Numbered from the stretch's first letter, positions 7,044 to 56,101 are shown. The stretch is 64,000 nucleotides of DNA from Nitrospirota bacterium (GCA_049325335.1 JBMOMC010000007.1:128170-192169); one strand, 5' to 3'. A program made the numbers and translations. Notes: generated by a model not told the origin, from the letters alone.

Positions 7044-7733
7044 CTAAACGGGTTGGCAGAGGGCGCCGAGCGCGGATTCAAACAATGCGCGCCCGTCGCC
7101 GCCCCCGAGCGCCGTTTCGGACGCGCGCTCCGGGTGGGGCATCATCCCCAGCACGTTCCGCGCGGGGTTGCACACGCCCGCGATCGCGTCGACCGACCCG
7201 TTGGGATTGGTCACCCCGTCCTCAAGCGGCGCGTACCGAAAGACGATCTGGCCTTGATCGCGCAGGCGCGACAACGTGTCGGGGTCCGCCCAATAGGACC
7301 CGTCCGCATGCGCGATCGGCAACCGCAAGACTTGGCCTGCGGCGTACCGCGCGGTAAACGGCGTGTCGGTCCGCTCCACGCGCACCCCCACGGTTCGACA
7401 GAGAAACTTGAGCGAGGCGTTCCGCAACAGGGCGCCGGGCAGCAACCCGGACTCGACCAAGATCTGGAAGCCGTTGCAGATGCCCACGGTCAACCCGCCG
7501 CGCGCCGCGTGCCGCCTGACCGCGTCCATGATCGGGGAACACGCCGCCAACGCGCCGGTGCGCAGATAGTCACCGTATGAGAACCCGCCGGGGAGCACCA
7601 CCAGGTCCGCGGTCGGCAGCTCCGCGTCGCGGTGCCACACCATCCGCACGGACGCCCCGAGCACGCGGCCCAACACGTGCTCGCAGTCTCGATCACAGTT
7701 CGATCCGGGGAATACCACGACGGCTGCGTTCAC
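7044..7733 (-). CDS. purQ: phosphoribosylformylglycinamidine synthase subunit PurQ (glutaminase)
   Basis: [19 protein letters not shown]...[18 protein letters not shown]...GICNGFQIL...MPHPER: class-I glutamine amidotransferase, PurQ type. Confidence 0.9.
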
Positions 7734-7743
7734 GACGAGGGAC

Positions 7744-8124
7744 TCACTCGGATATTTTCAACAGATCGCGCACGGTTTTGAGCAACGTATTCGTCTGGAT
7801 CGGTTTGGGAATATACGCGTTGGCGCCCAACTGCATCCCCTTTTCGCGATCCGCGTCCGCGCCTTCCGTGGTGACGATGATGACGGGAATGTGGCTGTAC
7901 GACGGTTCCTTGCGGACAATGCTGAGGAGCTTCAGGCCGTCCATCAGCGGCATGTTGATGTCCGCGACGATTAAGTGCACGGGGTGTTCGGACAGTTTCT
8001 TCAACGCGTCGACCCCGTCGGTCGCTTCAACGATCTTGGCGCCTTTGATCCGTTTGAGACTGAACGAGACAAGCTGGCGCATCGTGGGCGAGTCTTCTAC
8101 GACCAAAAAGACGTATTCAGCCAT
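7744..8124 (-). CDS. cheY: CheY-like single-domain response regulator
   Basis: MAEYVFLVVEDSPTMR...LIVADINMPLMDG...PVIIVTTEG...AYIPKP: complete receiver signature (E/D pair, phospho-Asp, Thr, Lys). Confidence 0.85.
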   Translation of the reverse strand: MAEYVFLVVEDSPTMRQLVSFSLKRIKGAKIVEATDGVDALKKLSEHPVHLIVADINMPLMDGLKLLSIVRKEPSYSHIPVIIVTTEGADADREKGMQLGANAYIPKPIQTNTLLKTVRDLLKISE

Positions 8125-8175
8125 GTCGGTTTTGTCACCTCCCACCGCCAACGGGCCCGCGGCCCGGTGACGCGC

Positions 8176-9027
8176 TCACGCCGCCTTGTTGGTCATCAAG
8201 CCCAAAAACCCTTTGATCGTCGACAGCGACCGCTGGGATCGCGAGTACAACATGGCGCTGAAAATCGCGGTGGCCGCGTGCCCGCCCAACATGGAAAACA
8301 ATTCGTGATCGACCCGGGTCAGCCGCTGTTTCTTTTGTTCAAACAGGTCGAAAATGGCGATCACGCCGATCACCCCGTCGTGAATCTTCAGCGGAATACA
8401 CGCGATCGGACGATCCGGCGACGACACGATCGGCTGATTGAGATCCTCGACGATAAACGGCTCGCCGGTTTGCGCTGTTTTCCCGATGATGCCTTCGCCC
8501 AACGGGATTTTTTTGATGCTCGGATCCATGGTTTCCGCGGCCGCCACGTTGAGCACGGGTTCTTCGTCGCTGCGCGTGAGAATCGCGAAGTGGTCCGACC
8601 CGATCAAATTGAGAATGATCTCGCTGATGATCCGCAACACTTCGTTGAGGTCCATCGTGGAATGGAGTTGGTAGCTCGCCACGTAGAGATTCGCCAAATT
8701 GTTGTTTTCTTCTTCCACCTCCACGTACCGGCTGGCAAAATCCTTGTTTTCTTCTTCGACCACCTTGTAGCGATTGAGCATCGCCTCTCGTTCGGCCTTC
8801 ATCTCGTCGAGTTGTTGACGAAGCTTCGAGAGCTCGGGCGAGGACGGGCCTTTGTGCCCGGCCCGGGCCTGTTCGATCGCTTGAGCGAGGGCAAACCGCA
8901 GCCGCTCATTCTCCTTGAGCAGATCGTTGGTAAACTCGATCCCCTTGTGAAACACCCCCAAAAACTCGTCCGCCCGGCGAAAGATTTCCGGCTCCTTGCC
9001 CTTTTCCTTGTCTTTATCCTTCTCCAT
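8176..9027 (-). CDS. coiled-coil + GAF-domain protein
   Basis: Lys/Glu-rich N-terminus (MEKDKDKEKGKE), heptad-like region (LSKLRQQLDEMKAEREAMLNRYKVVEEENKDF...), and a C-terminal GAF-like fold (...IPLGEGIIGKTAQTGEPFIVEDLNQ...ACIPLKIHDGVIGVIAIFD). Confidence 0.6.
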   Translation of the reverse strand: MEKDKDKEKGKEPEIFRRADEFLGVFHKGIEFTNDLLKENERLRFALAQAIEQARAGHKGPSSPELSKLRQQLDEMKAEREAMLNRYKVVEEENKDFASRYVEVEEENNNLANLYVASYQLHSTMDLNEVLRIISEIILNLIGSDHFAILTRSDEEPVLNVAAAETMDPSIKKIPLGEGIIGKTAQTGEPFIVEDLNQPIVSSPDRPIACIPLKIHDGVIGVIAIFDLFEQKKQRLTRVDHELFSMLGGHAATAIFSAMLYSRSQRSLSTIKGFLGLMTNKAA

Positions 9028-9098
9028 ACCGTCATCCTTTCACGGGCCCGGAGTATAGCACCGGGCTGTTCAGACCCGCAAGACTCCGACTTCCCCGT

Positions 9099-10184
9099 CT
9101 ATCGATGCGCCCCCGCCATGACCCGTTTGGCGATCTGCTCCGCGATCGCGTGCAGCGGCGCCACCACGTCGACCGCGCCTTCGAGGATCGCCTCCTGCGG
9201 CATGCCGAATACCACAGCGGTTTCTTCAGACTCCGCGATGGTGCCCCCTCCCCCTTGTTTAATTTTGGCCATGCCGCGCCGCCCGTCGTGGCCCATCCCC
9301 GTGAGGATGACGCCCACCAGGTCCGCGCCGAACACCTCGGCCGCCGAGGTCATTAGATCGTCGACGGAAGGCACGTACCGGTCGTCGAGACCCGCCGGGG
9401 TCAGGACCACCTTCACCCTGTCCCCGCACCGCACGAAGGAGAGGTGGTGTCCGCCCGGGCAGATCACGATCTGCCCGGGCCGACACCACTGGTCCGGGCT
9501 CGCCTCGGAAATATCCCACGCGGACAGACGATTGAGTCGCTCGGCGAACGACGCGGTAAAGCCGGCCGGCATGTGCTGCGCCACCGCCACCGCGCACGGC
9601 AGATCCCGCGGCAACGTGGACACGATGGTTTGCAGCGCGGCGGGACCGCCGGTGGATGAGCCGACCGCGACCAGTTTGAGTCGGTCGGGCGCGCCGACCG
9701 CGGGTTTGATGAGGATCGGGTCGGCGGGGCTCACCGCCGCGGCTTTGGCCGCGCGTTCGCATAATCGCACCGGCGAGGCGGCCGCGATCGCGCGCACCTT
9801 CGTCTCCAATTCGCCGCGCACCTTCAGCACTTCCCACGACGCCAGGTGGGTGGGTTTGGCGAGGAAATCCGCGGCGCCCAGTTCCAGGGCATGAAACACG
9901 TTGGAGGCCTCCGACGCCGCGCTGACCACCAAGACCGGCGTGGGCAACGTGTGCATCAACCACCGGAGAAACGCGAATCCGTCCATCCGAGGCATTTCCA
10001 GGTCCAACGTGATGACGCTCGGCCGATATTTATTGACCGCCTGAATCGCCTCCAATCCGTCCGAGGCGGTCCCCACGACCTCGACGCCGGGGACTTCCTT
10101 GAGCATCATGACTATCGCCTGCCGGTAGAACGCGGAATCATCCACCACCAGTACGCGCGTCGGCGTCGCGTCATGCCGCGGCAC
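9099..10184 (-). CDS. cheB: chemotaxis response regulator protein-glutamate methylesterase
   Basis: N-terminal REC (RVLVVDDSAFYRQ...ITLDLEMPRMDG) and C-terminal CheB methylesterase domain (VAVGSSTGGPAAL...VAQHMPAGFT...GMGHDGRRG). Confidence 0.9.
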   Translation of the reverse strand: MPRHDATPTRVLVVDDSAFYRQAIVMMLKEVPGVEVVGTASDGLEAIQAVNKYRPSVITLDLEMPRMDGFAFLRWLMHTLPTPVLVVSAASEASNVFHALELGAADFLAKPTHLASWEVLKVRGELETKVRAIAAASPVRLCERAAKAAAVSPADPILIKPAVGAPDRLKLVAVGSSTGGPAALQTIVSTLPRDLPCAVAVAQHMPAGFTASFAERLNRLSAWDISEASPDQWCRPGQIVICPGGHHLSFVRCGDRVKVVLTPAGLDDRYVPSVDDLMTSAAEVFGADLVGVILTGMGHDGRRGMAKIKQGGGGTIAESEETAVVFGMPQEAILEGAVDVVAPLHAIAEQIAKRVMAGAHR

Positions 10185-11010
10185 GGGACTGCTCCTCCTT
10201 CTGATACACGATATCTCGGTTGAGATGCCGCAGGTTGAACGCGGTGCTGACGTTGATCAATGACTCCGAATGGCCCAAGAGCAGGTACCCGCCCGGGCGC
10301 AATCGGTTCCAAAACATCTCGATCACCCGTTTCTTCACGGGCAGGTCGAAATAAATGATGACGTTGCGGCACAGGATCACGTCCACCCTGGGCACCAAGG
10401 TCGCCCGCTCCGCGTCCGCCAGGTTAAACGCGAAAAAACTGACCATACGTTTGACCGAATCGTTGATACGAAACCCGCTCCCCTCGGCGTGAAAAAACCG
10501 CTCGCGATACTCCGGAGGCGTTGACCGAAACGATGAGGGCGGATACACCCCGCGCCGAGCCGTCTCCAACACGCGCTGGCTGATGTCGCTGGCGACGATC
10601 TCGATGTGCCAGTCCGCGTACTCCGGGTGGTTCGCCAGCGTCATGGCGATGGAATACGGTTCTTCCCCGGTCGACGACCCGGCGCTCCAGATCCGCAGAG
10701 TGCGATCCGTGCGCCGTTTCATCAACCCCGGAAGAATTTCGTTCCGGAGCGCCTGCAGTTGATGGTCTTCCCGGAAGAAATACGTTTCGTGAATCGTCAG
10801 CAGGTCGACGATCACCGCGAATTCTTCGGTCCGCCGCGCGTCGTACTTGAGGAACAAATACAGGTCTCGGAACCCGGACAACCGGAGCCGACGGAGGGTC
10901 TCCTGGAGACGATTTTCCATGAAGAACTTCGATTGGTCGTCCAGCCACACGCCGCAATGGTCATACAACATGTCCCGGAGCAGCTTGAAGACGTCGGCGC
11001 TGAGCGGAAT
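10171..11010 (-). CDS. cheR: chemotaxis protein methyltransferase CheR (start codon uncertain)
   Basis: CheR N-domain (LSADVFKLLRDMLYDHCGVWLDDQSKFFMENRLQETLRRLRLSGF) plus SAM-MTase domain (LRIWSAGSSTGEEPYSIAM...LCRNVIIYFD). No ATG/GTG/TTG lies between the upstream gene stop (~11057) and the conserved N-domain; the nearest in-frame candidates are ATT/ATC, or a GTG about 155 nt inside the upstream gene. Confidence 0.8.
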   Translation of the reverse strand: MPLSADVFKLLRDMLYDHCGVWLDDQSKFFMENRLQETLRRLRLSGFRDLYLFLKYDARRTEEFAVIVDLLTIHETYFFREDHQLQALRNEILPGLMKRRTDRTLRIWSAGSSTGEEPYSIAMTLANHPEYADWHIEIVASDISQRVLETARRGVYPPSSFRSTPPEYRERFFHAEGSGFRINDSVKRMVSFFAFNLADAERATLVPRVDVILCRNVIIYFDLPVKKRVIEMFWNRLRPGGYLLLGHSESLINVSTAFNLRHLNRDIVYQKEEQSRAAA

Positions 11011-11056
11011 TGAGACTTGTTCGATGGCGATCCCCCGTGGTGTGGTGTGTGCCGGG

Positions 11057-13084
11057 CTACGACGCCTCGTCCAACGCCATCGTGAGTTGCTCCACCGCGA
11101 AATGCGCGGACTCTCGAACCACGTGATCCGGATCTTGCGCCGCCAGCTCGCGCAGCCGCGGCAACGCGCGGGTGACCCGCGCGCGACCGAGCGCCACGGC
11201 CGACGCCGCACGAACCCCCCAATGCGCGTGGTCCAACATCGGGATGACCGGTTCCGCGATCTGCTCGCCGCCGATTTCACCCGCGGCCGCGATCGCGGCC
11301 TGTTTGACGTCCGGGTCGTTCGAGGAGAACAGCCGAATCATGGCCGGCAACGCCCCGCGAACCTTGCGCGTTCCCAGCGCGACGCAGACCGCGATTTGAA
11401 TCAATCCGACCGGATCATTCACCAGCAGCAGCAGCGTCTCTTCGATGCCCTCGGCGCCCCGCTCGCCCAACAACCGAATCACCTCGGCGCGGATCCAGAT
11501 ATCGGGATCATGCAACAGCGGCCGAATCAGGTCGTCGATCACGGCATCCCGTCGTCGGGCCAGAATCCGGATCATTTCGAGCCGCACGGTCGGGTCTTCG
11601 TCGTTTAAGGCCACGTGCGCCACGGTTCTCACGTCGCCGCCCAACGACTCCAACGCCGCCAGCCCGGTACGCCGGATCATGGGGTCCGGATCCTTCAGGT
11701 CCAACATCAGGCGGCCGTGCGCCTCGGGCGCTTGAAAGGCGCCGAGTAATCTCGCGGCGTAACAGTGGATCTCCACCGTGGAGCCGTCGAGCAGACCCAG
11801 CAGCCGAGACACCAGGCCGGGGCTCTTGAGCCGCGTTAAGGCGCGGTACGCGGCCTCTTGAACATTCGGGTACGGATCCGCCAACAACTGGAGTAAGGGA
11901 CGGACCCCCAGCGGGTCCGCCAGTTGCCCCAAGGCCGCGGCCGCGGCTTGGCGAACGTGGCCCTCGGGATCTCCCGTGAGTTCGACGAGTCCGTGAACGG
12001 CTTTCCGGTCGCCGATCTCCCCAAGCGCCCGCGCCACGTCTTCGCGCAGTCCGGCCGGGGCTCGCGGGATCACGGCCAATAATTTGGGCACGCCCTCGCG
12101 CTGCATGCGGACACACGCCGCCACCAGTTCCTCCCGACACGATTCGTCGTAGACCGCGGCGAGCGCGGCGATGGCTTGCACGTCGCCCATCCACCCCAAC
12201 ACCGTGATCGCGTTGCGTTTGACCGCCGCGTCGCCGCCAGCGAGGCTGTCCCGAAGGTATCGGCTCACCGGCTCGTCGTAGATTTCGCGCATACGACAGA
12301 TAATCTTGGTTTTCACGTCGGGCGGCATCCGACCGTACAACTCGATCACCGCACGCACGGCCACGTGGCGGACCTTCGACGACCCGAGTCGGATCGCCTG
12401 TGCCAAGGGATTCACCACCCGCCCATCGCCGATCCGTCCGAGCGCCTCCAATGCCGCGCGTTCCAACGTCGGTTTGCCGAGGCACCCGACCAGCGGTTCG
12501 ACCGCCCGCCCATCGCCGATTTCCTGTAAAGCTTTGACCGCGGAAAACTGCAGCAGGGGACGGCCCTGTCGCAACAGATCGGCCAACGGCTCCACCGCCC
12601 TGGGATCCCGCAGTTTCCCCAACGCCTCCACCGCCGCCATCGCCACATTCTCGTCGGTCTGGCCCACCAACCGCACCAGGACCGTGGTCGCGCGCCGATC
12701 ACCGATATCTCCCAGGATATCGACTACGAACTTCTGCACATCGGGTTCAGCGGAGGGCACCGCGGCCAAGAGCGCCGGAACCGCGGCGAGGCCGAAGCGC
12801 ACCAGCACTTCGGCGGCAGCGTTTCGCAACGACGCGTTGTCCGGATCGGCCACCCCCGCGATCAGATGCGGGGCCATGTCCGCACGCCATCCCAACCCGA
12901 CCAAGGCCTCGACCGCGGATTTCCGAACGCGCCACTCCGAGTCCCTGAGCGCGGTCAGCAGATCCGCCACGGCCTCGTACCCGCATCGGGCGAGGTCCGC
13001 GACCGCGGCCACCCGCTCTTCCATCTCGCCGCTCGCCAATCGCGCGCGGCAGGTCGTGACGTCTGACTGATGCGGCTCGGCCAT
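11057..13084 (-). CDS. HEAT-repeat (PBS-lyase-like) protein
   Basis: More than 15 tandem ~30-aa repeats of the form D.xVRxxAxxALGxIGDxRAVxPL. Start taken at MAEPHQ (13084); the ORF is open to 13222 but would then overlap the upstream gene by 119 nt. Confidence 0.7.
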   Translation of the reverse strand: MAEPHQSDVTTCRARLASGEMEERVAAVADLARCGYEAVADLLTALRDSEWRVRKSAVEALVGLGWRADMAPHLIAGVADPDNASLRNAAAEVLVRFGLAAVPALLAAVPSAEPDVQKFVVDILGDIGDRRATTVLVRLVGQTDENVAMAAVEALGKLRDPRAVEPLADLLRQGRPLLQFSAVKALQEIGDGRAVEPLVGCLGKPTLERAALEALGRIGDGRVVNPLAQAIRLGSSKVRHVAVRAVIELYGRMPPDVKTKIICRMREIYDEPVSRYLRDSLAGGDAAVKRNAITVLGWMGDVQAIAALAAVYDESCREELVAACVRMQREGVPKLLAVIPRAPAGLREDVARALGEIGDRKAVHGLVELTGDPEGHVRQAAAAALGQLADPLGVRPLLQLLADPYPNVQEAAYRALTRLKSPGLVSRLLGLLDGSTVEIHCYAARLLGAFQAPEAHGRLMLDLKDPDPMIRRTGLAALESLGGDVRTVAHVALNDEDPTVRLEMIRILARRRDAVIDDLIRPLLHDPDIWIRAEVIRLLGERGAEGIEETLLLLVNDPVGLIQIAVCVALGTRKVRGALPAMIRLFSSNDPDVKQAAIAAAGEIGGEQIAEPVIPMLDHAHWGVRAASAVALGRARVTRALPRLRELAAQDPDHVVRESAHFAVEQLTMALDEAS

Positions 13085-13103
13085 CGCGTCCCTCCCCCCG
13101 CGC

Positions 13104-14174
13104 CTACGCGGCCGCCTGACGATTGCGATTGAGCAATTCGCGCCGAGTCGCCACGAATTGTTCGAGCGTTTGCTGGAACAAATCCGCCGTCGCGGGAAAT
13201 GACGGGTCCCGCCGTTCTTCATAGAGACGCCGCCCTTCGTCGATCTCCGCGCGCAACAACTCGAAAAACGTCCCCTTCACCACTCCCTCGTCCACCTTCT
13301 TCGCGTTATACAGCGCAATGTCGGAAACGATGATGCGGGCCAGGCGCCGCGCGGCCTCCACCACCGGATCGTCGGTCTTGGACGCTGAGGGCGCCGGGGG
13401 TTGGACCGGCGGCATCGACGGTTCCTTGGCGACTGCGGGCGCCGGAGGAACCGTCGGCGCGCTCGGCGGCGCCACGCGCGACGCGGCGGGAGCCGACGGC
13501 TGGGGCCGCGCGCTGGGCGGCGGTACCGGCGCGGGCGCAACCGCTTTTGCGGCAACGGCCTGGGCCTCCGCGACTCGCTCCGGTTGATGGGGTTCGGGCG
13601 ACGGCTCCGAGGCCGAGGCCTCGCGTTCACACAAGGCTTTGACCTTGGTCACCAAATCCGTTTCGATCTGGTGTCGCTCGATGTAGTCGTCCGCGCCAAA
13701 GAGCTGACCCGGTTGGCGCCGGTACCGGTCCTTATTGTGAATCGCCGCGACCAGGATGATTTTCACCCCCGCAGTCGCGGCATTGTTCCGGATGCGCTCG
13801 CACACTTGGAACCCCATAATGTCCGACAGCCCCACGTCCACCAGGACCAACGCGGGCCGCGCGTCACTCACGCGAACCAAGGCGTCCGCGCCGGTGGCCG
13901 CTTCGATGACTTCGAACCCCGCTCCCGAGAGCAACTCGCCGATCAGTTCGCGCGTCGCCTCGCCCTGCAGCGCGACCACCACGCGTTGGCGCTGGTCGTT
14001 GGTCGGCGGCGACGGGGACGTCTCCGGGGCGGCCGCGGCGGCGGGGATCGCAAACGCCTCGATCCTGACCCGCAGCCCGCTCCGACATCCGGGACACGCC
14101 ACCACCGTGTGATCGGCCAGGGACGGGAGCGCGTAGCCGACTCCCGCGCCGCATTGTGCGCAGACGATGTTCAT
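13104..14174 (-). CDS. MJ0042-type zinc-ribbon + degenerate receiver-like domain + Pro/Ala-rich linker + C-terminal domain protein
   Basis: N-terminus [14 protein letters not shown]...[15 protein letters not shown] (CxxC...CxxC). Receiver-like fold ([18 protein letters not shown]...[16 protein letters not shown]...[10 protein letters not shown]) retains the phospho-Asp position but lacks the DD pair, Thr and Lys. Long [19 protein letters not shown]... linker follows. Confidence 0.6.
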
Positions 14175-16402
14175 GGGTTCTCCTTCGTGAGTTTAAAGCG
14201 GGAGACTTGTGCCTCCAGTTCCCTGGCCGCGGACAGCAGGCTGTCGACCGCCGCGGTCGTCCGATTCATCGCGTCCCGATTTTGATGACCGACGCGCCCG
14301 ATCGATGACACGGCGCCGACGATGGCTTCGCTTTCGGTTCGCCGTTGCCGAACGAACTCTTGGACCGTCTTGACCCGTTGGTTCGCGGATTCAATGACCT
14401 GGCTGACTTGTCGGTTCCCCTTGGCGTGTTCGGTCGCCGCGCGGGTCACGCGTTGCGACATCGCACGCGCCTCCTCGCTGACCCGCTCCACGTCCTCGAG
14501 CATGCGCGCCTGCGTGCGCGCCACCTCGATGAGGTGCGCCACCTGCGCGGTGACGGTCTGCATCTCCGCGTTGACCCGTTGCACGCCGCTCATTTGCTGA
14601 TCCGTTTCCCGCGCGATGTCCAAAATTCTCGTCGTGGAACTCTTCGCGCCCTCCAAAATCTTGTCCAACGCCGCCCGCGCGGCGCCCGACACCCGCACGC
14701 CTTCTTCCACACGGCTCGCGCTGTCCGCGATCGCCCGCACCGCGCCCGCGCCCTCGACCTGCAGCGCCGCAATAATGTCGTGGATCTCCTTGGTCGACGT
14801 CGCGGTCCGCTCCGCCAACTCCTTGATCTCGCCCGCGACCACCGCAAAGCCTTTGCCGTGTTCGCCCGCCTGCGCGGCGATGATCGCGGCGTTGAGGGCC
14901 AAGAGATTGGTCTGCTCGGCCACTTCGTCGATCACGCTCAGAATGCTCCCGATCGACTCGGTCCGCTGTTGGAGCCGTTGGATCACGGCCGACGCGTCGT
15001 CGGAAAACGCCTTGATGCGATGGATGCCGTCGATCGTTTGCGCCACGCATTCCTGCCCGTGTCGCGCGTCATCCCCTACGCGGTGTGACAGCTCCACCGT
15101 CGTGTGGATCTCGGCCCGGATCTGGGTCGTGGACTGCTCGATCGAATCCGCCGACGAGGCGGTGTCCGCCGCGGCTTTTGAGAGCACGCCCAACGCCGCC
15201 TCCGCCTGTCGGATCGATTCGGCCAGGATTTTCACCGAGTGTTGGGTGCCGGATGCCGCCCGCGCGTAACCGTCGGCGTCCCGGGCGATTTCCTCGGTCG
15301 ACGCCGTCATCTGCGCCGTCGCCGCGGTGCTCTCCTCGATCATGGTCGAGAGTCCGTCCATCCCGGAGCCGAGTTCCGTAATCGCTTCGTGCAGCTCGGT
15401 CGTGGATTGCAGGGTCGCCTCCACGTGGATCGCCTGCGATTCGATCCCGCTGTGCACCACGGCGGCGTCCCGCGCCAAATCGCGGCCCGAGGCGCCTACC
15501 GTGCGACTGACGTCGGACACCTTCCGGATAATGACCTCCAGCTTGTCCACGAACCGATTGAACCCTCCCGCCAAGTCGCCGATTTCATCGCGCGAGGATA
15601 ACTCCAACCGTCTGGTCAGATCCCCTTCCCCGTCGCTCACGTCGTTGATGCGCTCCACCACCCGATGGAGCGGACCGAACACGCCGCGCCGGAGCGAGAC
15701 CCGCAGCAGCAGCCCCACGATCGTGATGGTGCCGAACGCGCCCCACGCCATGTCGCGTCGATTCGCGCCGACCTCGTTCCACAACTGATCGGTCGCGGTG
15801 GAGATCATGAGGACTCCCCGCAACTTGTGGTCCGAACCGTGACACAGGTAACACCGTTGAAAATTCGGCAACGGCCGCAGGTAGGTCATCACCTCCCGGT
15901 CGTTGATCCGCTCAAAGTAATATTCGTCCTTCGCGTTGAGCGGGTCCGCCAGAATGCGGGTAAAGGCTTCGCGAAACGCCGGCGCCTCGACCCCGGTCGC
16001 GCGATTGGGCGAGACGTTGGGATGATCCGCCACCCACTCGGGGCGAATCGGCACGCGCGTTTTCACCTCTTCAATGGTCTTGAGGTCCATGAACCCCTGC
16101 TCGACGCCCAACCCGTCTTTTCCGCGCACGACCTGGATCCGGACGATTTCCGGCAATTCCTTGAGGTCGTCGAGCAAATGCCGCGCCATATCGGCGCGGA
16201 ACGCCACCATGTCTTTGTCGAACGCCAGGTGCACCGAAGCGGCCAGCAACCCCGCTTTCTCCCGCTCGTGGTTGATCAAATCGTGCCGCATCTTGGTCTG
16301 CAGGATCACGAAAATCGCGACAAACCCGACCACCAAGGTCGCCAACACCAGGGTGATGACCTTCGACGAAAGTTTCCGACCGGACTGGTTCGGCGCGCCC
16401 AT
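14171..16402 (-). CDS. methyl-accepting chemotaxis protein with periplasmic CXXCH (haem-c) sensor domain and HAMP
   Basis: TM1 ([20 protein letters not shown]), a ~190-aa periplasmic domain containing [13 protein letters not shown]2, HAMP, then the MCP signalling domain ([29 protein letters not shown]). Start at MGAPNQ (16402) gives a 1-nt overlap with the cheW stop. Confidence 0.85.
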
Positions 16403-16872
16403 CACGCCACCTCGGACAACACGGCGAATTCCGCGGGTCCCAACACCGCGTCCAAATCCACGACCAGCAACAAGGCGTCCTTGACGCGACAGACGCCTCG
16501 ACACATCGTCCCGCCGTCGGCGTCCGACTTGCGCGCCTCAAAGTCGTCGGCATCCACGTCCAACACATCCGACACGCGATCCACGACCAACCCCAGCAGC
16601 CGCTCACCCAATCGCACGATCAAGATGTGCGCGGGACGCGTGCGCGCGCTCGCGGGGACGCCGAAACGTTCCCGCAGTTCGATCAACGGCAGCGTGGTGC
16701 CCCGAAGGTCCATCAACCCGTCGAGAAACGCCGGAGCGTGCGGCACCGGAACCGGCTCGCGGTAAAACACGATTTCGCGGATCCGTTCGATTTCGGTCAC
16801 GTACGGACGTTCGCCGATCTCCAAACACAGCAGTTTGCGGCGAACGTGCAGCGTTGCCAGCCGTCCCGCCAT
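16402..16872 (-). CDS. cheW: chemotaxis coupling protein CheW
   Basis: Single CheW domain ([23 protein letters not shown]...[21 protein letters not shown]). Stop/start overlaps with both flanking MCP genes. Confidence 0.9.
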
Positions 16873-18986
16873 CAGGCCACCTTGAACCGATTGACCTCGG
16901 AGCGCAGCGTCTCGGCCTGCCGCACCAGTCCGTTCACGACCCCGCTCATTTGTTCCGCGACGGCCGCGCTGTCCTTCGAGACCATTTGAATTTCTTCGGC
17001 CGACTTCATGATGATTTCGCTGCCGCGCCGCTGTTCGCGGACGGCCGCGGCGATGTGTTGCACCCGATCGGTGACGTGTTCCACCGCCTGGGTAATCTGC
17101 TTGCTGCCCTTGGCCTGCTCTTCGGTGGACAACCGCACCTGCCTGGTGATATCCCGCATCCGCTCCGCGGCCTCGCGAATTTGTTCCGATCCCTTGCTTT
17201 GCTCCTGGGTGGCGCGCGAAATCTGATCGACCATCTGGGTGATCTGTCGCATGGACTCGGTCACTTGCCGGATTCCCTTGACCTGTTCGATCGTGGCCAG
17301 CTCGATGCCGCGGGCCATATTGGTGGACTGCGTGGAGCTCTCCAAAATCTTCTTGAGCGCCTCGCCGGCCTCCAGCGCCATCTTCATGCCCTCTTCCACC
17401 CGCACGTACCCGTCTTGAATCGCGGTGACCGCGTCGCGCGACTCCCCCTGCACCGCGCCGATGAGCTGCGCGATCTCCTTGGTGGACACCGAGGTCCGGT
17501 CCGCGAGATTTTTGATCTCATCCGCCACGACCGCGAACCCCTTGCCCTGTTCACCCGCCTGCGCCGCCAAGATGGCCGCATTGAGCGCCAGCAAGTTGGT
17601 CTGTTTGGTGACTTCGTCGATCACGGTCAGGATTTTGCCGATCTGGTCGGACCGTTGACCCAGTTGGTGGATGACGTCGGTGGTCTTTTTGACGGTTTCG
17701 CTGATTTTCTCCATGCTCGCGATGGTCTTGGTCACCGACAACATCCCGATTTCCGACGCCTCGCGCGTCACCCGTTCGGCCAACGAGGCCGACTGCTTCG
17801 CGTTTTGCTCGACTTCCTTCACCGACGCGTTGATCTCGGTCACCGCCGAGGCGGTTTCACCCGAGGCCGTGGACAACAACACCACGTTGCCGGCCACCTG
17901 TTTGATCGAAGCCGACATTTCAATAATGGCCGATGACGTCTCCTCCACCGACTTGGTCAGATCCACAGTGTTGGCCGCCACTTCGCTGATCGCCGCGCTC
18001 ATCTGTAAAATCGAGGACGAGGTGGCTTCCGACGCCGACGAGAGCACCTCGATCCCATCGCCGACCTCCCGCAGCGACGCGTTCATTTCCACCAACGAGG
18101 AGGAGGTCTTCTCCGTGGAAATCGATTGGATGTTGGCGCCCTCCGTGACTTTCCGGCTGTTGCCCGCGATGTGCTCCGACGCGGACGTCACCGCGTTCGC
18201 CGCGTCCTGCACTTTGCGAATCATGGCTTTCAGGCTCGACGCCATTTGATTGAACCCGCTCGCCAACACGCCGATTTCGTCGCGCGACGCGACCTCGATC
18301 GTCTGCGTAAAATCGCCGTCCGCCACGCGCGTGACCACCAACGCCATCCGCTCGATCGGCGCCATGTTCTTGCGCACGAAATACCACATCACCCCCATGC
18401 CGGCGCCGACCGTAAGCACGGTGATCAACACGCTCCACCACATAATGCTCGAGAGCTTCTTTTCCAATTCCCGAGGCGACAACGCCATCACCACGGTACC
18501 GATGCGGGCCTTCCCGCCCGAGCCGCCGGCCATGGCTTCTCCGGTGCTGAACAACACCGGCTCCACCACCATCAACAGCGTCTTGCCGTCCTTCTCCACC
18601 TGTTCGACGAATCCTTCGCTCGCCTGAACCGCCTTCACCGCGAGGGGATCGCTGTCGACTTCCTTACTGAAGTTGGCATCGCTGTGGACCCAGACAATCC
18701 CGCGCCCGTCGAGGATCTTGACGTACGCCACGTCGGTCTCGGTCATGATGCCCTTGATGTAACTGACCAGGCTCGACGAGTCGCCGATCGAAATGCCGTA
18801 CGTGCTGTTGTGGGCCAAGTTACTGGCCAGCGACACGCCGCGTTTGATCAGCGCCTCTTGCAGGAACTGCCCGGTCCTCGCCATCGACACCACGGTCAGC
18901 ACCACGGAGACGCTCAGCAAGAGGAGACTGGTAATGATGACGAACTTAAACCGCAGTCCGAACCGGATATTTCGTCGCTCCAACAT
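16872..18986 (-). CDS. methyl-accepting chemotaxis protein (2 TM, periplasmic sensor, HAMP)
   Basis: TM1 [21 protein letters not shown], a ~150-aa periplasmic domain without Cys, TM2 [25 protein letters not shown], and the MCP signalling domain ([25 protein letters not shown]). Confidence 0.85.
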
Positions 18987-19015
18987 ACGCTCCTCCCCCC
19001 ATACCGTTCATCCCG

Positions 19016-19768
19016 TTAGGCCGCGGCTCGCGCCGACGACGCGTCAACGGCCACGAGCCGCTCCAAATGCAAGACGCCGATCAATCGCTCGCGGTGCCGC
19101 AAGGTCGCGGTGACAAATCCCGCTTCGCGCTCCCCCATGGTCGTGGGCGGCGGACCCAGCGCATCGGCCTCGGCGTTGATGACCTCCGTCACGTGATCCA
19201 CCACCATGCCCACCGGCGCCCCGTCGATCACGACCACCACGATCCGGGACTTGGAGTCGTGGTCCCGCGCCGGCATGGATAATCGGCGACGCACGTCAAA
19301 AATCGGCACGATCGATCCCCGCAGCGAAATGATGCCCATTATGTTCGCCGGCCCTCGCGGGATCGGCGTGATGTCGGTCGGACGAATAATCTCCCGAACC
19401 GAACGAATCCACAGACAGTATTCTTCCGCGTCCAACGTGAACCCTAAAAATTCTTCGACGCGCGCCTCCGGCGCTTCGGAAACCGCCGCGCCGGACGACG
19501 GCTCCGCCGAACCACCGTACGGCGCTTCCACACGCTCCGGGGCCCCGTCCTGGCCATTCATCGGGCCGGCCGGCGGTGGCGCCTCGATCGCGATCGCGAC
19601 CGGCTCCGCAAGCACGGGCGGGTCCGGCTGGGCCGGCGCGGGGACTGACGCTGGTTCGGCCGCTGGCACCGGTTCGGCCACCGTCGTGCGCTCCCGGTTG
19701 ACCGGGCTCGTTGTCGCGCGCGTTCTCCGCCGTGACCGCGATTGGTGTGACGTGCGGGATCGCCTCAC
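19016..19768 (-). CDS. CheW-domain protein with Arg-rich / Pro-Ala-rich N-terminal extension
   Basis: C-terminal CheW fold (EEFLGFTLDAEEYCLWIRSVREIIRPTDITPIPRGPANIMGIISLRGSIVPIFDVRRRL...). The N-terminal ~100 aa are low-complexity. ATGA overlap with the upstream small MerR gene. Confidence 0.75.
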   Translation of the reverse strand: MRRSRTSHQSRSRRRTRATTSPVNRERTTVAEPVPAAEPASVPAPAQPDPPVLAEPVAIAIEAPPPAGPMNGQDGAPERVEAPYGGSAEPSSGAAVSEAPEARVEEFLGFTLDAEEYCLWIRSVREIIRPTDITPIPRGPANIMGIISLRGSIVPIFDVRRRLSMPARDHDSKSRIVVVVIDGAPVGMVVDHVTEVINAEADALGPPPTTMGEREAGFVTATLRHRERLIGVLHLERLVAVDASSARAAA

Positions 19769-20004
19769 GCCGCCTCCTGTCGCACCTTCTCGGCCGCGCG
19801 GCTGACCAGGAATCCTTCATCCGTCAACGCCTTGACCCGCTTGAGGATCCGAACGTCGTGGTCCGTGAATCGGCGGAACAATTTCACCCCGTGGCGTTCG
19901 CTGACCGGCGTCACCACCCCGATCAAGACCCAGTACTCGAGTTGCCGAGGGGACAGCCCGACCTGCCGACACACCTCATTGGGACCGCATAACCCCGTGC
20001 GCAT
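19765..20004 (-). CDS. DNA-binding-domain-only MerR-family protein (79 aa, BldC-like architecture)
   Basis: VCRQVGLSPRQLEYWVLIGVVTPVSERHGVKLFRRFTDHDVRILKRVKALTDEGFLVS is a MerR winged-HTH, about 45% identical over ~60 aa to the 2773..3255 MerR N-domain. No effector or dimerisation domain. Confidence 0.7.
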   Translation of the reverse strand: MRTGLCGPNEVCRQVGLSPRQLEYWVLIGVVTPVSERHGVKLFRRFTDHDVRILKRVKALTDEGFLVSRAAEKVRQEAA

Positions 20005-20017
20005 CTACCGCTCCATC

Positions 20018-20037
20018 ACATCCCACAGGCTTGTGGG
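20018..20037. promoter_or_regulatory. perfect inverted repeat ATCCCACA-N4-TGTGGGAT immediately upstream of the small MerR-like gene
   Basis: Sequence atcccacaggcttgtgggat lies 14-33 nt upstream of the ATG at 20004, inside a 280-bp non-coding gap within the otherwise tightly packed che cluster. Confidence 0.35.
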
Positions 20038-20283
20038 ATCGCACCGCGACTAGCAGCAAGGACCGTGCCGAGGTGCGATCTCCCTAGAGCCCATGGAACC
20101 GCGGAGGGGCGTGACCAGAGGTCGTTACGCGTCGTCGGTTGGGTAACGCGTCACCCGGTGCGTGCCAAAAATTGACGCAATGACCCAAAGACGTGACGGA
20201 GCGGACAGGACGCGGGGTGCGAAGAAACCTTCCTCGGGTCCCCGATCGTCGGGTCCTCGAGGGCAGCACGGAATCAGGCGGGC

Positions 20284-22290
20284 TTAGGCGGCCAGGGGAA
20301 GGGCGGTTGAACGACGGCACACGGCTTCATCGATCAACGCCCCGACGTCGAGCACCAGAATGGTCTTTCGATTCCCCAGTTCAGTGGCGCCGGCAACGCC
20401 GGGGATACCTTGGAGCAGTGAGCCAATGGATTTGATGACGATTTCCTGCTGCCCATAAATCGTATCCACGACCAACCCCAACCGCTTTTCCGCCAACCCG
20501 ACGACGATGATGTACAGGCGGCTGTCCCCGTTCCGGGCCGGCTCGACGCCGAACAGATCGCTAAGCCGCAGGAGCGATAAGGTGTGGTCGCGTAGGTGTA
20601 TGACGGGCCGGCCCCCGATCGTGACCACTTGGCTGGATTCGATCATGACGCTTTCGGACACCGCGCTGATGGGGATCGCGTAGGTCTGCGTCCCCACGCC
20701 CACGATCAACGCCTTGATGATCACCAATGTGATCGGCAGCGTCAACACGAAGCTCGTCCCCTGGCCGAGCTCCGTATCGACCTCAACGATCCCGTTGAGC
20801 TTGGCGATATGCCGGGCCACCACGTCGAGGCCGACCCCCCGCCCGGAGAGTTCGGTCACGGCCTCGGCGGTGGAGAACCCGGGTTGGAAGAGAAAGTCGA
20901 TGATCTCTTTGTTGGTATAGTCCCGGTCCGGCTCCGCGATGTGATTGGCAAGCGCCTTCTCGCGCACTTTCGCCAGGTTCACGCCCGCACCGTCGTCCGA
21001 GACCGTGATGGTCACGGTATGGCCCTTGTGGGCCGCGCTCAGATGGATCGTCCCCACCTCCGGCTTGCCGCGGCGACGGCGTTCCTCGCACGGCTCGATC
21101 CCGTGATCGAGGGCATTGCGGATCAAGTGCAACAACGGATCCGCGATCGCCTCGACCATGGATTTGTCGAGTTTGGTTTCCTCGCCGGACGTCGTGACCT
21201 GAATCTCCTTGCCCAAGTCCCGGGAGATTTTTTTGATCGCGCGCACGGAGCGATCGAACAACTGCGCCACCGGGATCATGCGGATTTCAATCAACCCTTC
21301 CTGCAGCCCGGACACGCGGTGTTCCAAGGCTTGGGCGGCCTTATGTAATTCCATCGCGGGGCCCACCAACCCCCCATTTTGGAGCAGGTCTCGCGCGATC
21401 TGGACGATCACCGACTTGGAGAGCACCAGCTCCCCCAGCATATTCAACAAAGCGTCGAGTTTGACGATGTCCACCCGGATCGTTTGGCTGAGGCTGCGGG
21501 TCGACGGCGAGTCCGATTCACCGGCGGGTGCGGCCTTTGTCGGCGTCGGCTCCGCGCCGCCCAGTTGCACGATGTCGGCGCGATCCTCGGCCAGCAACCG
21601 CGTCAACGCGTCCCGGTCCTGCGCGGTGCCGACCAAAAGCGTAAACGCGATCCCGGCCTCCGGCGACACTCCGGAGCTGGGCAACGTGGAAATCACTTCC
21701 CCCACGCCCTGGAGTTTCGCGGTCAGACTCGACAGGGACTTGTCGAAATCTTCGAACCGGAAACGGACGCGGATCTCGAACAACCGATGGTTGGCCTTGA
21801 TGTTTTCCTGAAGGCGATGTTGTTCGTACTCGGTGAGGACTTGGAGAATTTCGGGATCAACCCCGGACTTCTCGGTGGACGGCGCCGCGGCGGGCGCCCC
21901 GTTCACGGCCTCGCGGAGGCGCGCCGCCAGCCCCGACGTATCCGGCGGCACCTGGTCCGATGACGCGGCGGCGATCAACTGGGCCAACGCCTCGACGCCG
22001 TCGCCCAAGAGATCCGCGAGATTTCGACTCATCCCGAGTTTGCCCATGCGCAGCCGGTCCATCAGGTCTTCCAGCGAATGGGCTAGGTCCGACACCGCGG
22101 TCAACCCCATCACCCCGGACATCCCCTTGAGGGTGTGGGCCGCGCGAAACAACGCGTTGAGCGATTCCGGACTGATCGAGTCGGGCGATTGCTCGATCCG
22201 ATCCAGATGGCGGCGGAGGGTATCGAGGAGTTCGTCGGACTCGGCGAGGAACTCTCGAAGCGTGTCGTCCTTGTTCCGGCGATCCATCAC
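20284..22290 (-). CDS. cheA: chemotaxis histidine kinase CheA
   Basis: P1/Hpt (AAHTLKGMSGVMGL), dimerisation region, HATPase (DHGIEPCEERRRRGKPEVGTIHLSA...DDGAGVNL...GRGVGLDVV) and C-terminal CheW-like P5. No fused receiver domain. Confidence 0.9.
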   Translation of the reverse strand: MMDRRNKDDTLREFLAESDELLDTLRRHLDRIEQSPDSISPESLNALFRAAHTLKGMSGVMGLTAVSDLAHSLEDLMDRLRMGKLGMSRNLADLLGDGVEALAQLIAAASSDQVPPDTSGLAARLREAVNGAPAAAPSTEKSGVDPEILQVLTEYEQHRLQENIKANHRLFEIRVRFRFEDFDKSLSSLTAKLQGVGEVISTLPSSGVSPEAGIAFTLLVGTAQDRDALTRLLAEDRADIVQLGGAEPTPTKAAPAGESDSPSTRSLSQTIRVDIVKLDALLNMLGELVLSKSVIVQIARDLLQNGGLVGPAMELHKAAQALEHRVSGLQEGLIEIRMIPVAQLFDRSVRAIKKISRDLGKEIQVTTSGEETKLDKSMVEAIADPLLHLIRNALDHGIEPCEERRRRGKPEVGTIHLSAAHKGHTVTITVSDDGAGVNLAKVREKALANHIAEPDRDYTNKEIIDFLFQPGFSTAEAVTELSGRGVGLDVVARHIAKLNGIVEVDTELGQGTSFVLTLPITLVIIKALIVGVGTQTYAIPISAVSESVMIESSQVVTIGGRPVIHLRDHTLSLLRLSDLFGVEPARNGDSRLYIIVVGLAEKRLGLVVDTIYGQQEIVIKSIGSLLQGIPGVAGATELGNRKTILVLDVGALIDEAVCRRSTALPLAA

Positions 22291-22658
22291 CCGGACCCGA
22301 TCAACCGTTGGATCGTGGACTGCAGATGTTGGGGCTCGAACGGCTTCTTCACGTATGCGGACGCTCCCAAGTTGAGCCCCCGCCGCACGTCTTCGTCGCT
22401 GCCCTCCGTGGACACGATGACCATCGGGATCGATTTATACTCCGGGTGGTGTTTCACGAAATGCACGATCTCCAGACCGTTGATGTCCGGCATATTGATG
22501 TCGGTGACGATCAGGTCGAGCGCCTGCTGCGGGATGCGTTTGAGGGCTTCGAACCCGTTGGGGGCTTCGATGGTTTCGAACCCCTCCATCTCCTCGATAG
22601 CGGAGACGATCAGCGCGCGCGTGGTGGGCGAATCATCCACCACCAACACGCGTTTCAT
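22287..22658 (-). CDS. cheY: CheY-like single-domain response regulator
   Basis: MKRVLVVDDSPTTR...LIVTDINMPDINGLEI...PMVIVSTEG...AYVKKPF: complete receiver signature. Overlaps the cheA start by 4 nt. The ORF is open to 22676. Confidence 0.85.
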   Translation of the reverse strand: MKRVLVVDDSPTTRALIVSAIEEMEGFETIEAPNGFEALKRIPQQALDLIVTDINMPDINGLEIVHFVKHHPEYKSIPMVIVSTEGSDEDVRRGLNLGASAYVKKPFEPQHLQSTIQRLIGSG

Positions 22659-22698
22659 GTCGGTCCGTTTTTGCACGCGGCTGAGTATAGCATAGGGT

Positions 22699-23895
22699 TT
22701 AAGAATCGCCCGTTCTGGTCCGCTGAATTTGTTGTTGCAACAACGTCTTGCCGAGGGAAACGGCCGCGACGCGAAGAAACGCCTCCAGCCCCCCGGTCTC
22801 GCCGATCGGCGTCTGGTGCGGGAGATTGTCCCCGTACAAGAAGGCGACCACCCGCTCCGCGCTCACGATGGGCGCGAGATAACTTTCCTGCGGCCAGTGT
22901 CCGCCCAGGCGCTCCATGACCATCCGATTGCCGGAGAGATCGGGCCAAGCGCCCTTGAGCGCGGAGCGGCTGTCCGCGACCGCTCTGAACGACGACGCGT
23001 CGGTCAGCGGCACGACGATGGACCGGACCACCTCGTCGGGCGAGCCCTCCGTCACCTCCACGCCGAACTGTCCCCACCCGCCGACCGCGTCGCCTCGCAC
23101 CAAAAAAATGACCGATCGATTCATCAACTCGCCGGCAAACCGCAGCATCATCAGGAAGACGTCGTGGCCGGACACCGCCCCGCCGAGCTCTTCGATCATG
23201 GCCGGCAACAACGATAAATCCTTTCTCGGAATTTCTGCGCGATCCCCCAATACCGCGGCCCCCAACGCGTCGTCCGACACCAGGCCCGCCAGGCTTTCCG
23301 GGTCCGGTGTTTCGATCGCCGGGTGCGACATCGGGGTGGACTCGTCCAGGCCCGCGAACGAGTCCTCGGCGCCGGAGGATTCGTCGAGGACCAGGTCATC
23401 CCCGACTCCGCCCCCGGATTCGTCCTCGAGCCGGGCGCCTTCCAACAGCAGAAACTCGGCGCTGATGCCTGCGTTCATCAACACGCCGTCCTCGGAAAAT
23501 TTCCCCAACGTGAACTGAAAGGTCCCGGTTCGCCAGCCCAGCAGATCACGCACCACGTCGATGATGTGCAGGCGTAATTCGCTCTCCACTTGCTCCGGGC
23601 TCATCGAGCCCATTTCCACCAAGATCGTGCCGATGGGCTTCTTGACGGTGCGGACCTTTTGGATGCCGAGCGCTCGTTCGAGGTCCGCGCGCGTGATCAG
23701 GTTCTTCTGGACCAGCACGTAGCCGAACCGGCTCTTATTGTCGGAACTGGCGTAAGTCACGTTGCCTTGGTTGAAGACCACGCGCCCCATGCCGTCCTTT
23801 TTAATGAGCGTCAACACGCCCGAGCGTTTGCTCAGGTTGATGATTTGAAAAATATCCGGTAAGCCGAGGTCTTCGAGACGACCCTCAAGGCTCAT
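22699..23895 (-). CDS. DUF4388 (PATAN-like) N-terminal domain protein with C-terminal GAF-like region
   Basis: N-terminus LEGRLEDLGLPDIFQIINLSKRSGVLTLIKKDGMGRVVFNQGNV matches the DUF4388/PATAN pattern. The C-terminal ~150 aa look like an alpha/beta sensory fold. Overlaps the purS stop by 4 nt. Confidence 0.55.
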   Translation of the reverse strand: MSLEGRLEDLGLPDIFQIINLSKRSGVLTLIKKDGMGRVVFNQGNVTYASSDNKSRFGYVLVQKNLITRADLERALGIQKVRTVKKPIGTILVEMGSMSPEQVESELRLHIIDVVRDLLGWRTGTFQFTLGKFSEDGVLMNAGISAEFLLLEGARLEDESGGGVGDDLVLDESSGAEDSFAGLDESTPMSHPAIETPDPESLAGLVSDDALGAAVLGDRAEIPRKDLSLLPAMIEELGGAVSGHDVFLMMLRFAGELMNRSVIFLVRGDAVGGWGQFGVEVTEGSPDEVVRSIVVPLTDASSFRAVADSRSALKGAWPDLSGNRMVMERLGGHWPQESYLAPIVSAERVVAFLYGDNLPHQTPIGETGGLEAFLRVAAVSLGKTLLQQQIQRTRTGDS

Positions 23896-24173
23896 GGCCC
23901 CTTGGGTGTGGGCTGGTCAGAGGCCTCGGCGCCGTCGAGCACCTCATAGCGGTAGTCCTCAATGACGGGATTAGCCAAGAGGCGCCGGCACATGTCCTCA
24001 ACCCGTCGTTCCGCGGTGGATCGGTCGGTGGTCCGCAAGTCGATATCGATCAGTTTCCCGATGCGCACGCCGCTCACGTCGTCAAATCCCAATCCGGCCA
24101 ACGAGCGCGCCACGGCGTCGCCTTGCGGATCCAAAATCCCTCGTCGATACGTCACGTAGACCCGAGCCTTCAC
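23892..24173 (-). CDS. purS: phosphoribosylformylglycinamidine synthase subunit PurS
   Basis: MKARVYVTYRRGILDPQGDAVARSLAGLGFDDVSGVRIGKLIDIDL...: PurS family, ~90 aa. Confidence 0.85.
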   Translation of the reverse strand: MKARVYVTYRRGILDPQGDAVARSLAGLGFDDVSGVRIGKLIDIDLRTTDRSTAERRVEDMCRRLLANPVIEDYRYEVLDGAEASDQPTPKGP

Positions 24174-24300
24174 GTCGCCTCCCCGCCCGTCGCGTCCGCC
24201 ACGAAGGAAGGCCGGCCATCACCTCGGCGCAGAACGCAGCTAATACTAACGCACCCGCCCGCAACCGGCAAGGCGGCCCCGGCGAGATGTCGCGGACCGC

Positions 24301-54525: not shown

Positions 54526-54528
54526 GGC

Positions 54529-56064: not shown

Positions 56065-56101
56065 CCAGTGGGTTTCGTTGCCATCAGGCCGCTTGAGCGC
56101 G

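Follow-up and report, generated by a model that had tools for sequence, protein, structure and literature searches.

A bacterium of the phylum Nitrospirota (GCA_049325335.1) carries a complete chemosensory (che) gene cluster between purS and purQ, two genes of purine biosynthesis (pur). We analysed this arrangement in a stretch of 64,000 nucleotides (nt), JBMOMC010000007.1:128170-192169, which we call the window and whose positions are counted from its first nucleotide. The listing of open reading frames (ORFs) and the Pfam assignments give the minus-strand order purB-purS-[14 che-type genes, 7744-23895]-purQ-purL-purF. The distance from purS to purQ is 16.1 kb, and the pair is separated in all other members of the clade described below as well. 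An earlier note on this DNA, made from the sequence alone, had placed a che cluster here, and the Pfam assignment of every named ORF, all on the minus strand, bears it out. In the literature we found no published description of a che cluster nested between purS and purQ. What is new is a chemosensory cluster of unusual composition at an unusual but stable place.

Read 5' to 3', the minus strand begins with a class-V aminotransferase, a TPR protein, ribBA, ribH, nusB, a protein with only a Peptidase_M17_N domain (M17N), purB and purS. The Pfam-assigned array from ribBA to the M17N gene occupies 28323 to 25622. It is followed by purB (adenylosuccinate lyase, 24301-25602; Lyase_1 and ADSL_C) and purS (23892-24173; PurS, 1.3e-31). 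On the far side of the signalling genes lie purQ, which encodes the glutaminase subunit of formylglycinamidine ribonucleotide (FGAM) synthase and starts with GTG (7044-7733; GATase_5, 3.4e-40), and purL for the large subunit (4769-7027; AIRS, AIRS_C and FGAR-AT_linker; start refined to ATG 7027). Then come purF (amidophosphoribosyltransferase, 3366-4784; GATase_6/7 and Pribosyltran; start refined to ATG 4784), a 160-aa MerR regulator and two unknowns. All of these are on the minus strand, as is every Pfam-supported gene in 1305-31447.

The 14 signalling genes, also minus-strand, are headed by a PATAN (DUF4388) protein (22699-23895; DUF4388, 2.2e-28). Behind it are a cheY-type response regulator (22287-22658; Response_reg, 2.1e-27; start refined to ATG 22658) and a 668-aa cheA with Hpt, dimerisation, HATPase_c and CheW domains (20284-22287). 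After a gap discussed below come a 79-aa protein consisting only of a MerR-type helix-turn-helix (HTH) (19765-20004; MerR_1, 4.5e-11) and a CheW-like protein of 250 aa with an N-terminal extension of about 100 aa (19016-19768; CheW, 4.8e-33, residues 106-240). A methyl-accepting chemotaxis protein (MCP) with an sCache sensor (16872-18986; MCPsignal, HAMP, sCache_3_2) and a cheW (16402-16872; CheW, 6.6e-31) complete the first seven. The remaining seven begin with a second MCP, which has HAMP and a match to a 40H-type sensor (14171-16402; MCPsignal, HAMP, Mcp40H-20_sensor), and a protein built from a Zn-ribbon, a degenerate receiver (REC), a Pro/Ala linker and a C-terminal helical domain (13104-14174; Response_reg, 7.8e-12). 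They continue with a HEAT-repeat (PBS-lyase-like) protein (11057-13084; HEAT_2, 1.1e-81, 10 stretches), the methyltransferase cheR (10171 to about 11031; CheR and CheR_N) and cheB, a receiver plus methylesterase (9099-10184; CheB_methylest, 8.5e-60, and Response_reg). A coiled-coil and GAF domain protein (8176-9027; GAF_2, GAF_3, GAF), with Nitrospirota orthologues at 53-88% identity, precedes the final gene, a cheY-type single-domain response regulator (7744-8124; Response_reg, 2.4e-28). That tail cheY is 72-92% identical in relatives and always lies directly upstream of purQ there. By Pfam the chemosensory core is complete, with a four-domain CheA, two MCPs (MCPsignal 1.2e-37 and 4e-51) and two CheW-domain proteins, and CheR, CheB and two single-domain receiver proteins are present for adaptation and response.

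The junctions were counted after the gene starts had been refined against homologues. The sequence ATGA is common to the purS stop and the PATAN start, a 4-nt overlap that can be read directly. Between the TGA of the tail cheY and the GTG of purQ there are 10 nt, and a separate, independent Logan assembly with its own gene call has the same gap and the exact PurQ protein. The 13 junctions inside the cluster comprise 6 overlaps of 1-14 nt, 6 gaps of 19-71 nt and one gap of 279 nt between cheA and the MerR-like gene. The same gene order is found in more than 30 independent contigs from different samples, so the arrangement is not an assembly artefact. The earlier note was therefore right about the tight pur/che junctions and about a single-strand gene block from 31447 to 1305. 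It counted 15 intervening genes, although its own list has 14; the extra ORF at 20084-20320 has no Pfam match and is not called in relatives. Its statement that most internal junctions are overlaps of 1-4 nt was too strong, with just 6 of 13 overlapping.

The start of cheR is odd. There is no ATG, GTG or TTG at its conserved N-terminus, and when it is aligned with three orthologues and the DNA the homology starts at an ATC (11031 or 11025), about 25-31 nt past the stop of the HEAT gene. The only canonical alternatives are GTG 11211, which would overlap the HEAT gene by 155 nt, and ATG 10971, which would truncate CheR_N. A non-canonical start is possible, and so is a sequence error in this metagenome-assembled genome (MAG).

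Evidence about the age of the nesting comes from relatives. The left half of the block, ribBA-ribH-nusB-M17N-purB-purS-PATAN-cheY-cheA-(gap)-MerR-CheW-MCP-CheW-MCP-REC-HEAT, is kept in three NCBI MAGs with PATAN identities of 70% (GCA_040960215.1), 64% (GCA_016853205.1) and about 46-47% (Ca. Manganitrophus noduliformans, GCA_012184425.1). The right half, REC-HEAT-cheR-cheB-GAF-cheY-purQ-purL-purF, is kept in GCA_016853205.1, GCA_016200325.1 and a JGI contig. A metagenome scan with the PATAN alignment gave 80 loci, which tblastn with the window proteins splits into two groups. Group A contains 30 loci with PATAN identities of 40-86%; in 28 of the 28 that have upstream sequence purS lies immediately before the PATAN gene, and they usually carry the whole rib-nusB-purB array too. 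All 28 informative metagenome loci and four NCBI MAGs, Ca. Manganitrophus included, thus have the cluster in this one position. Across this clade PATAN orthologues fall from 86% to 40% identity and PurL falls to 61%, and the divergence of the Che proteins keeps pace with that of the housekeeping proteins next to them. Synteny past ribBA and purF decays in the distant relatives while the block from rib through pur/che to purF remains whole. The purS stop and the PATAN start are no more than 16 nt apart in 27 of 33 orthologous loci, and the spacing is exactly -4 in 12. At the other edge, four lineages give the distance from the tail cheY to purQ, which is 9, 10, 31 and 114 nt. The nesting is a deeply conserved, anciently inherited synteny feature and not an insertion event in this genome. 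The insertion implied in the earlier note gives way to a conserved lineage feature, since che genes part purS from purQ all through a deep clade of Nitrospirota.

The location within the pur array marks out one large clade of Nitrospirota, and it offers a clean and easily scored synteny marker for that clade, including Ca. Manganitrophus. To our knowledge, this clade includes the only known manganese-oxidising chemolithoautotrophs. The M17N protein (25622-26122, minus strand) has no catalytic domain and sits between nusB and purB in every che-containing relative.

Group B consists of 50 Nitrospirota loci at 35-39% identity. They have a cassette head PATAN-cheY-cheA-…-CheW-MCP…-HEAT-cheR, upstream of which pur and rib genes are absent; here the cassette follows recQ-lolA-yajQ, and an AAA ATPase gene replaces the MerR-like gene of group A (L170, L171). 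The earlier note had proposed a synteny comparison to see whether the che block moves as a unit. The homologous cassettes of groups A and B show that it does, and that the cassette family has two different places on the chromosome within the phylum. In one group B locus, L170, multihaem cytochrome genes follow the CheW gene. The most divergent of the pur-nested clusters, L115 and L116 (PATAN 40-42%), have no detectable MerR-like or MCP matches at the usual places and have an extra cheY after cheA. They differ within the pur-nested site, so the content of the cluster has been remodelled in place.

It is necessary to ask how unusual a separated purS and purQ is. Among the matches listed for PurQ (52-63% identity) we surveyed 79 diverse genomes, a set without close relatives. 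Of these, 49 have purS within 300 nt of purQ, 9 have it at 0.3-3 kb and 21 have none in the upstream flank. None of the 49 with the pair within 300 nt has che genes between them. The idea that purS, purQ and purL normally form one contiguous unit therefore stands as a majority pattern and fails as a universal one. The window resembles the canonical purS-purQ-purL operon of the Bacillus type, which encodes the three-subunit FGAM synthase, in that the subunits are co-directional with purB upstream and purF downstream. It differs in having 14 signalling genes between purS and purQ and in lacking purC between purB and purS.

The empty site can be seen in two che-less loci whose pur surroundings match those of the window. 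L028 has ribBA-ribH-nusB-purB-purC-purS-purQ-purL-purF, the order of the window minus the che block. The Nitrospiraceae MAG L002 has purB-DUF1835-purC-purS-purQ-3 ORFs-purL-purF. Outside the clade L054, L004 and others have purB-purS-purQ-purL. The che-containing loci group together in a PurB neighbour-joining tree. The position of purC separates the same sets: it lies between purB and purS in L002, L028 and L007 and in no che-containing locus, and the 64-kb window lacks purC altogether.

The one wide spacer inside the cluster (20005-20283, minus strand, 279 nt) is its break point, and a gap of 240-375 nt is present here in all close relatives. It contains GGCACGGTCCTTGCT (20055-20069, minus strand), an element of the sigma-54 -24/-12 type, with GG at -24 and GC at -12 in the spacing of TGGCAC-N5-TTGCW, that is the sole match to GGCAY-N5-TTGCW in the 64 kb. 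The alignment of cheA|MerR spacers also brings out a palindrome, TCCCACA-N4-TGTGGGA (20021-20038, minus strand), a candidate operator or hairpin of the 5' untranslated region. The order is sigma-54 element, palindrome, then the ribosome-binding site and ATG of the MerR-like gene. Of 16 orthologous loci, 12 have the sigma-54 pattern in an equivalent position, about 31 nt before the palindrome, and Manganitrophus is among them. In 12 of the 16, again with Manganitrophus, the palindrome half-sites are identical; the loops vary, and the fold has a z-score of -2.65. Since the half-sites never change while the loop does, the palindrome looks more like a protein operator than like an RNA stem. The 79-aa MerR-like protein is 61-83% identical across the clade, above most proteins of the cluster, and we predict that it is the likely binder of this operator. 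Upstream of the sigma-54 element, at about 20140-20180, there is a conserved CAATTTTTGRCAC…GTTACCCA box that could be an enhancer or a region for integration host factor.

A second promoter-like element lies before purS. In a six-genome alignment of the purB-purS spacer, CTTGCCGG and, 17 nt on, CGTTAGTATTA are invariant and the rest of the spacer is variable. The element reads TTGCCG-17 nt-TAGTAT (24243-24271, minus strand), about 70 nt before the purS start, and its sequence would make a reasonable sigma-70-type promoter. The leader of about 70 nt that follows has partly conserved blocks, CGTTCTGYGCCGAG and CCTTCNTCCGCGGCG. Rfam has no match over the whole window at gathering thresholds and, at permissive thresholds, only one chance-level match in 19900-24400, so neither the purB-purS nor the cheA|MerR spacer holds a known riboswitch or leader. 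A consensus scan for promoters and terminators gave fewer matches than shuffled sequence and none at the junctions; it missed both of the promoter-like elements found by alignment.

The break point is also where relatives carry extra or opposite-strand genes (L097, L102, L107, L109 and L118), for example an MCP and a porin-like gene in L118 and a PBP-like gene in L107. The two halves of the cluster are not one transcript in those relatives with opposite-strand genes in the gap. These genes, the conserved internal element of the sigma-54 type and the sigma-70-like element before purS speak for independent transcription within the block, and a single operon of 30 kb is unlikely. A possible source of activation lies at the window's edge. 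The C-terminal 258 aa of a sigma-54-dependent activator, or bacterial enhancer-binding protein (bEBP), are encoded at 2-775 on the plus strand (tblastn with the L087 bEBP, Sigma54_activat: 84% identity, residues 215-470). The gene runs off the start of the window and converges on the block, and it has the same place in L087. As an activator for the sigma-54 promoter inside the block its product is a candidate, by inference only. Next comes a short ORF (825-1289, plus strand) with a partial GGDEF domain (profile positions 60-161; GGDEF, 2.3e-11), which also converges on the block and has an orthologue at the same place in L087.

The head protein offers a clue to what the pathway does. It scores 42.5 bits against a cut-off of 38 for the NCBIfam model NF053729 (c-di-GMP_motif, for cyclic di-guanosine monophosphate) at residues 56-105. 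The MshEN motif is a tandem of 24 residues, RLGxx(L/V/I)(L/V/I)xxG(L/V/I)(L/V/I)xxxxLxxxLxxQ (Wang et al. 2016, PMC5013675). The PATAN family consensus RLGYTLVxKGxITxxDLExALxIQ matches it in full, and the second copy is relaxed, with P for R and H for Q. In MshEN receptors the motif lies at the N-terminus of a GspE/PilB-type ATPase, whereas here it is inside the PATAN domain, and binding of c-di-GMP is a prediction. The AlphaFold (AF2) model has a mean pLDDT of 69, with about 90 for the C-terminal domain. It has a four-helix segment at the MshEN motif and a disordered linker, and the PDB structures that best match its C-terminal domain are without exception GAF domains; a group B orthologue also matches GAF_2 in Pfam. 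We therefore predict, with high confidence for the GAF fold, the architecture PATAN(MshEN-like insertion)-linker-GAF and not PATAN-REC. An hhalign comparison of the PATAN family alignment with the tail GAF protein found no similarity between them. Among the other accessory components, the Zn-ribbon/REC protein has CxxC…CxxC at residues 5-30 and carries ALQGE where receivers have their acidic DD pair, and its helical C-terminal domain of about 90 aa, after the Pro/Ala-rich linker, has no Pfam match. The HEAT protein resembles NblB/CpcE in NCBIfam, below the cut-off.

Two known systems are worth comparing. The cyanobacterial Tax/Pix systems of the PatA type (Synechocystis PixG/PixH) share with the window a PATAN protein followed by a single-domain CheY, with CheA, CheW and MCP. 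They differ in that the window's PATAN protein ends in GAF and not in a receiver, and carries the c-di-GMP motif of the MshEN type. The window also has CheB and CheR, two MCPs, the HEAT protein, the Zn-ribbon pseudo-receiver, the GAF protein and the MerR-like HTH, and it belongs to another phylum. The PATAN domain of Synechocystis serves as an output module, binding PilB1 and PilC of the pilus motor (Han et al., bioRxiv 10.1101/2021.06.11.447907). For the window cluster, seen through its genes, a pilus link of the Tax/Pix kind is an analogy. The other system is Che7 of Myxococcus xanthus, which a paper citing the primary work (PMC9040617) mentions as acting through a HEAT-repeat protein. Che7 is likewise a che cluster of the non-motility type with a HEAT-repeat (PBS-lyase-like) protein beside CheA, CheW, MCP, CheY, CheB and CheR, and the likeness is one of gene content. 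As far as we know, Che7 has no PATAN, MerR-like or pseudo-receiver components and lies outside pur genes. The combination of PATAN, MshEN motif and GAF with HEAT, Zn-ribbon pseudo-receiver and MerR-like HTH is an undescribed chemosensory architecture.

The organisms themselves point in a similar direction. Type IV pilus assembly genes belong to the core genome in the comparative paper on the Manganitrophaceae, and a term search of that paper shows neither flagella nor chemotaxis. Pfam finds no pilus genes in the window. Our best guess, by analogy, is a non-flagellar pathway that integrates c-di-GMP and possibly acts on type IV pili, because of the PATAN/MshEN/GAF head, the pilus-binding PATAN domain elsewhere, the core type IV pilus genes and the precedent for a HEAT-repeat partner. 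If so, type IV pili may be under the control of this system in organisms so far beyond genetic manipulation.

We can now state the explanation that we favour, and which we hold to be somewhat better than an even bet: an anciently fixed, vertically inherited chemosensory cassette in a housekeeping array, with transcription in two units and a non-flagellar output. The gene orders indicate that a Nitrospirota-type cassette, PATAN/GAF-CheY-CheA-…-CheW-MCP-CheW-MCP-pseudoREC-HEAT-CheR-CheB-GAF-CheY, entered the purS-purQ spacer. The recipient would have been an array ribBA-ribH-nusB-purB-(purC)-purS-purQ-purL-purF in the ancestor of a large Nitrospirota clade including Ca. Manganitrophus, which has kept the cassette since. 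From the conserved motifs we infer at least two transcription units instead of one 30-kb transcript. The first would run from the sigma-70-like promoter in the purB-purS spacer through purS-PATAN-cheY-cheA, with purS probably coupled in translation to the PATAN gene through the ATGA overlap. The second would run from the sigma-54 promoter in the cheA|MerR gap, with the palindrome behind it as the likely operator for the small MerR-like protein, from the MerR-like gene through cheY. It probably continues into purQ-purL-purF, because the 10-nt cheY-purQ spacer has no room for a promoter outside coding sequence. Co-transcription across both pur/che edges is plausible on this sequence evidence, and under the two-unit model the FGAM synthase subunits are joined to signalling genes at each edge, in position and probably also in transcription. 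If both junctions are co-transcribed, three genes for step 4 of purine synthesis would be under promoters of a signalling cluster, one of them sigma-54-dependent, which is unusual control for an essential pathway. The pathway would most likely be non-flagellar given its PATAN protein, MshEN-type motif and GAF head, with the HEAT-repeat protein and the degenerate receiver as further output candidates.

Several results weigh against parts of this explanation. In a neighbour-joining tree of PurQ+PurL+PurF the che-less L002 nests among che-containing lineages; the joint clade is recovered in 197 of 200 bootstraps and monophyly of the che-containing loci alone in 4 of 200. A tree of the PurB C-terminus and PurS gives L002 the same placement, weakly. 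Sequence trees therefore do not cleanly support a single gain of the cassette. The nearly equal four-point distance sums point to very short internal branches, and the gene-order characters (purC present, che absent) favour a place for L002 outside the che-containing clade. Either the Nitrospiraceae lineage lost the cassette, or three lineages diverged nearly simultaneously with L002 as sister. Both histories date the nesting back to the radiation of this clade. The transcription units are open to challenge as well, for both promoters are predicted from motifs. The chance expectation for the sigma-54 pattern is 0.43, and 36 of 100 shuffles gave at least one match, so in one genome the match is not significant and its weight rests on positional conservation. 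The match is absent in three orthologous loci, L097, L102 and L106. After cheA we found no terminator signal (folding z-scores are near 0 in 4 of 5 genomes), so transcription from the purS promoter may run on through the entire block. A purQ promoter may be hidden in the coding sequence of cheY or the GAF gene, and one relative has 114 nt between cheY and purQ. The weakest step is the type IV pilus or c-di-GMP output, which comes from domain analogy alone.

What else could account for the arrangement? A recent island, acquired horizontally into this genome's pur operon, we regard as a negligible prospect, and the synteny data effectively refute it. The homologous cassette at another locus in other Nitrospirota does mean that it has moved at least once. 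Against a recent arrival, every relative found has the cassette at this site, even at a PATAN identity of only 40%, and the Che proteins diverge in step with their housekeeping neighbours. The comparison of GC and codon usage that the earlier note had proposed gives no sign of a foreign block: the G+C content of third codon positions is 0.816 in the block and 0.815 in the flanks, relative synonymous codon usage correlates at r = 0.98 and there is no GC break. We looked for island hallmarks and found no tRNA, no boundary repeats and no integrase or transposase domains. The composition agrees with long residence of the cassette, which is fully ameliorated. A more serious competitor, which we consider possible though distinctly less probable than the ancient two-unit cassette, is a frozen accident. 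The cassette would have landed once in a region that is rarely rearranged, and che and purQLF would act independently under their own unrecognised promoters. It is important to realize that the array ribBA-ribH-nusB-M17N-purB, whose genes are functionally unrelated, is equally conserved, so a conserved order in this region is not in itself a sign of common function. purS is apart from purQ in about a third of the listed diverse genomes, and adjacency is thus dispensable; the internal promoter motifs, the 114-nt cheY-purQ gap and the content that varies in place (the extra genes at the break point, the L115/L116 variant) also suit an accident. It explains less well why both pur/che junctions are intact and short where the outer synteny has decayed, why the ATGA overlap of purS and PATAN is retained in 12 loci, and how purQ would find promoter room in a 10-nt spacer outside coding sequence.

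At the opposite extreme, the nesting could be an adaptive coupling, in which a c-di-GMP/GAF cassette within the FGAM synthase operon ties purine capacity to behavioural state, or the reverse. We consider this quite improbable. The GAF fold often binds cyclic nucleotides, and the pathway has two GAF proteins and an MshEN-type motif above the curated cut-off. YajQ is a nucleotide-binding protein family, and the paralogous group B cassette lies directly after yajQ. The short GGDEF gene and the bEBP gene are conserved nearby, and both pur/che junctions have been conserved over a long period. All of this support is circumstantial, and the group B cassette functions without any pur neighbours; we found no precedent in the literature. 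A related proposal of functional nesting, with expression of FGAM synthase (purS in one che unit, purQL and purF in the sigma-54 unit) wired to a c-di-GMP/GAF-sensing chemosensory pathway, seems to us improbable as well, if slightly less so. If it were true, slow-growing chemolithoautotrophic Nitrospirota would couple the supply of purines (GTP, the precursor of c-di-GMP) to a decision about surface behaviour, and a hitherto undescribed regulatory link would run from a Che-type pathway to central nucleotide metabolism. The co-regulation of purine synthesis with signalling suggested by the earlier note is, as a matter of function, neither supported nor excluded by our results.

Two other groups of genes in the window, unrelated to the che/pur finding, may be recorded here. 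A TPR-Ser/Thr kinase lies beside a double-FHA protein at 48288-52153 (minus strand), and a DUF4340/ABC_transp_aux (GldG-like) pair lies at 53185-56130 (minus strand). The kinase/FHA and GldG-like genes are signalling- and surface-related.

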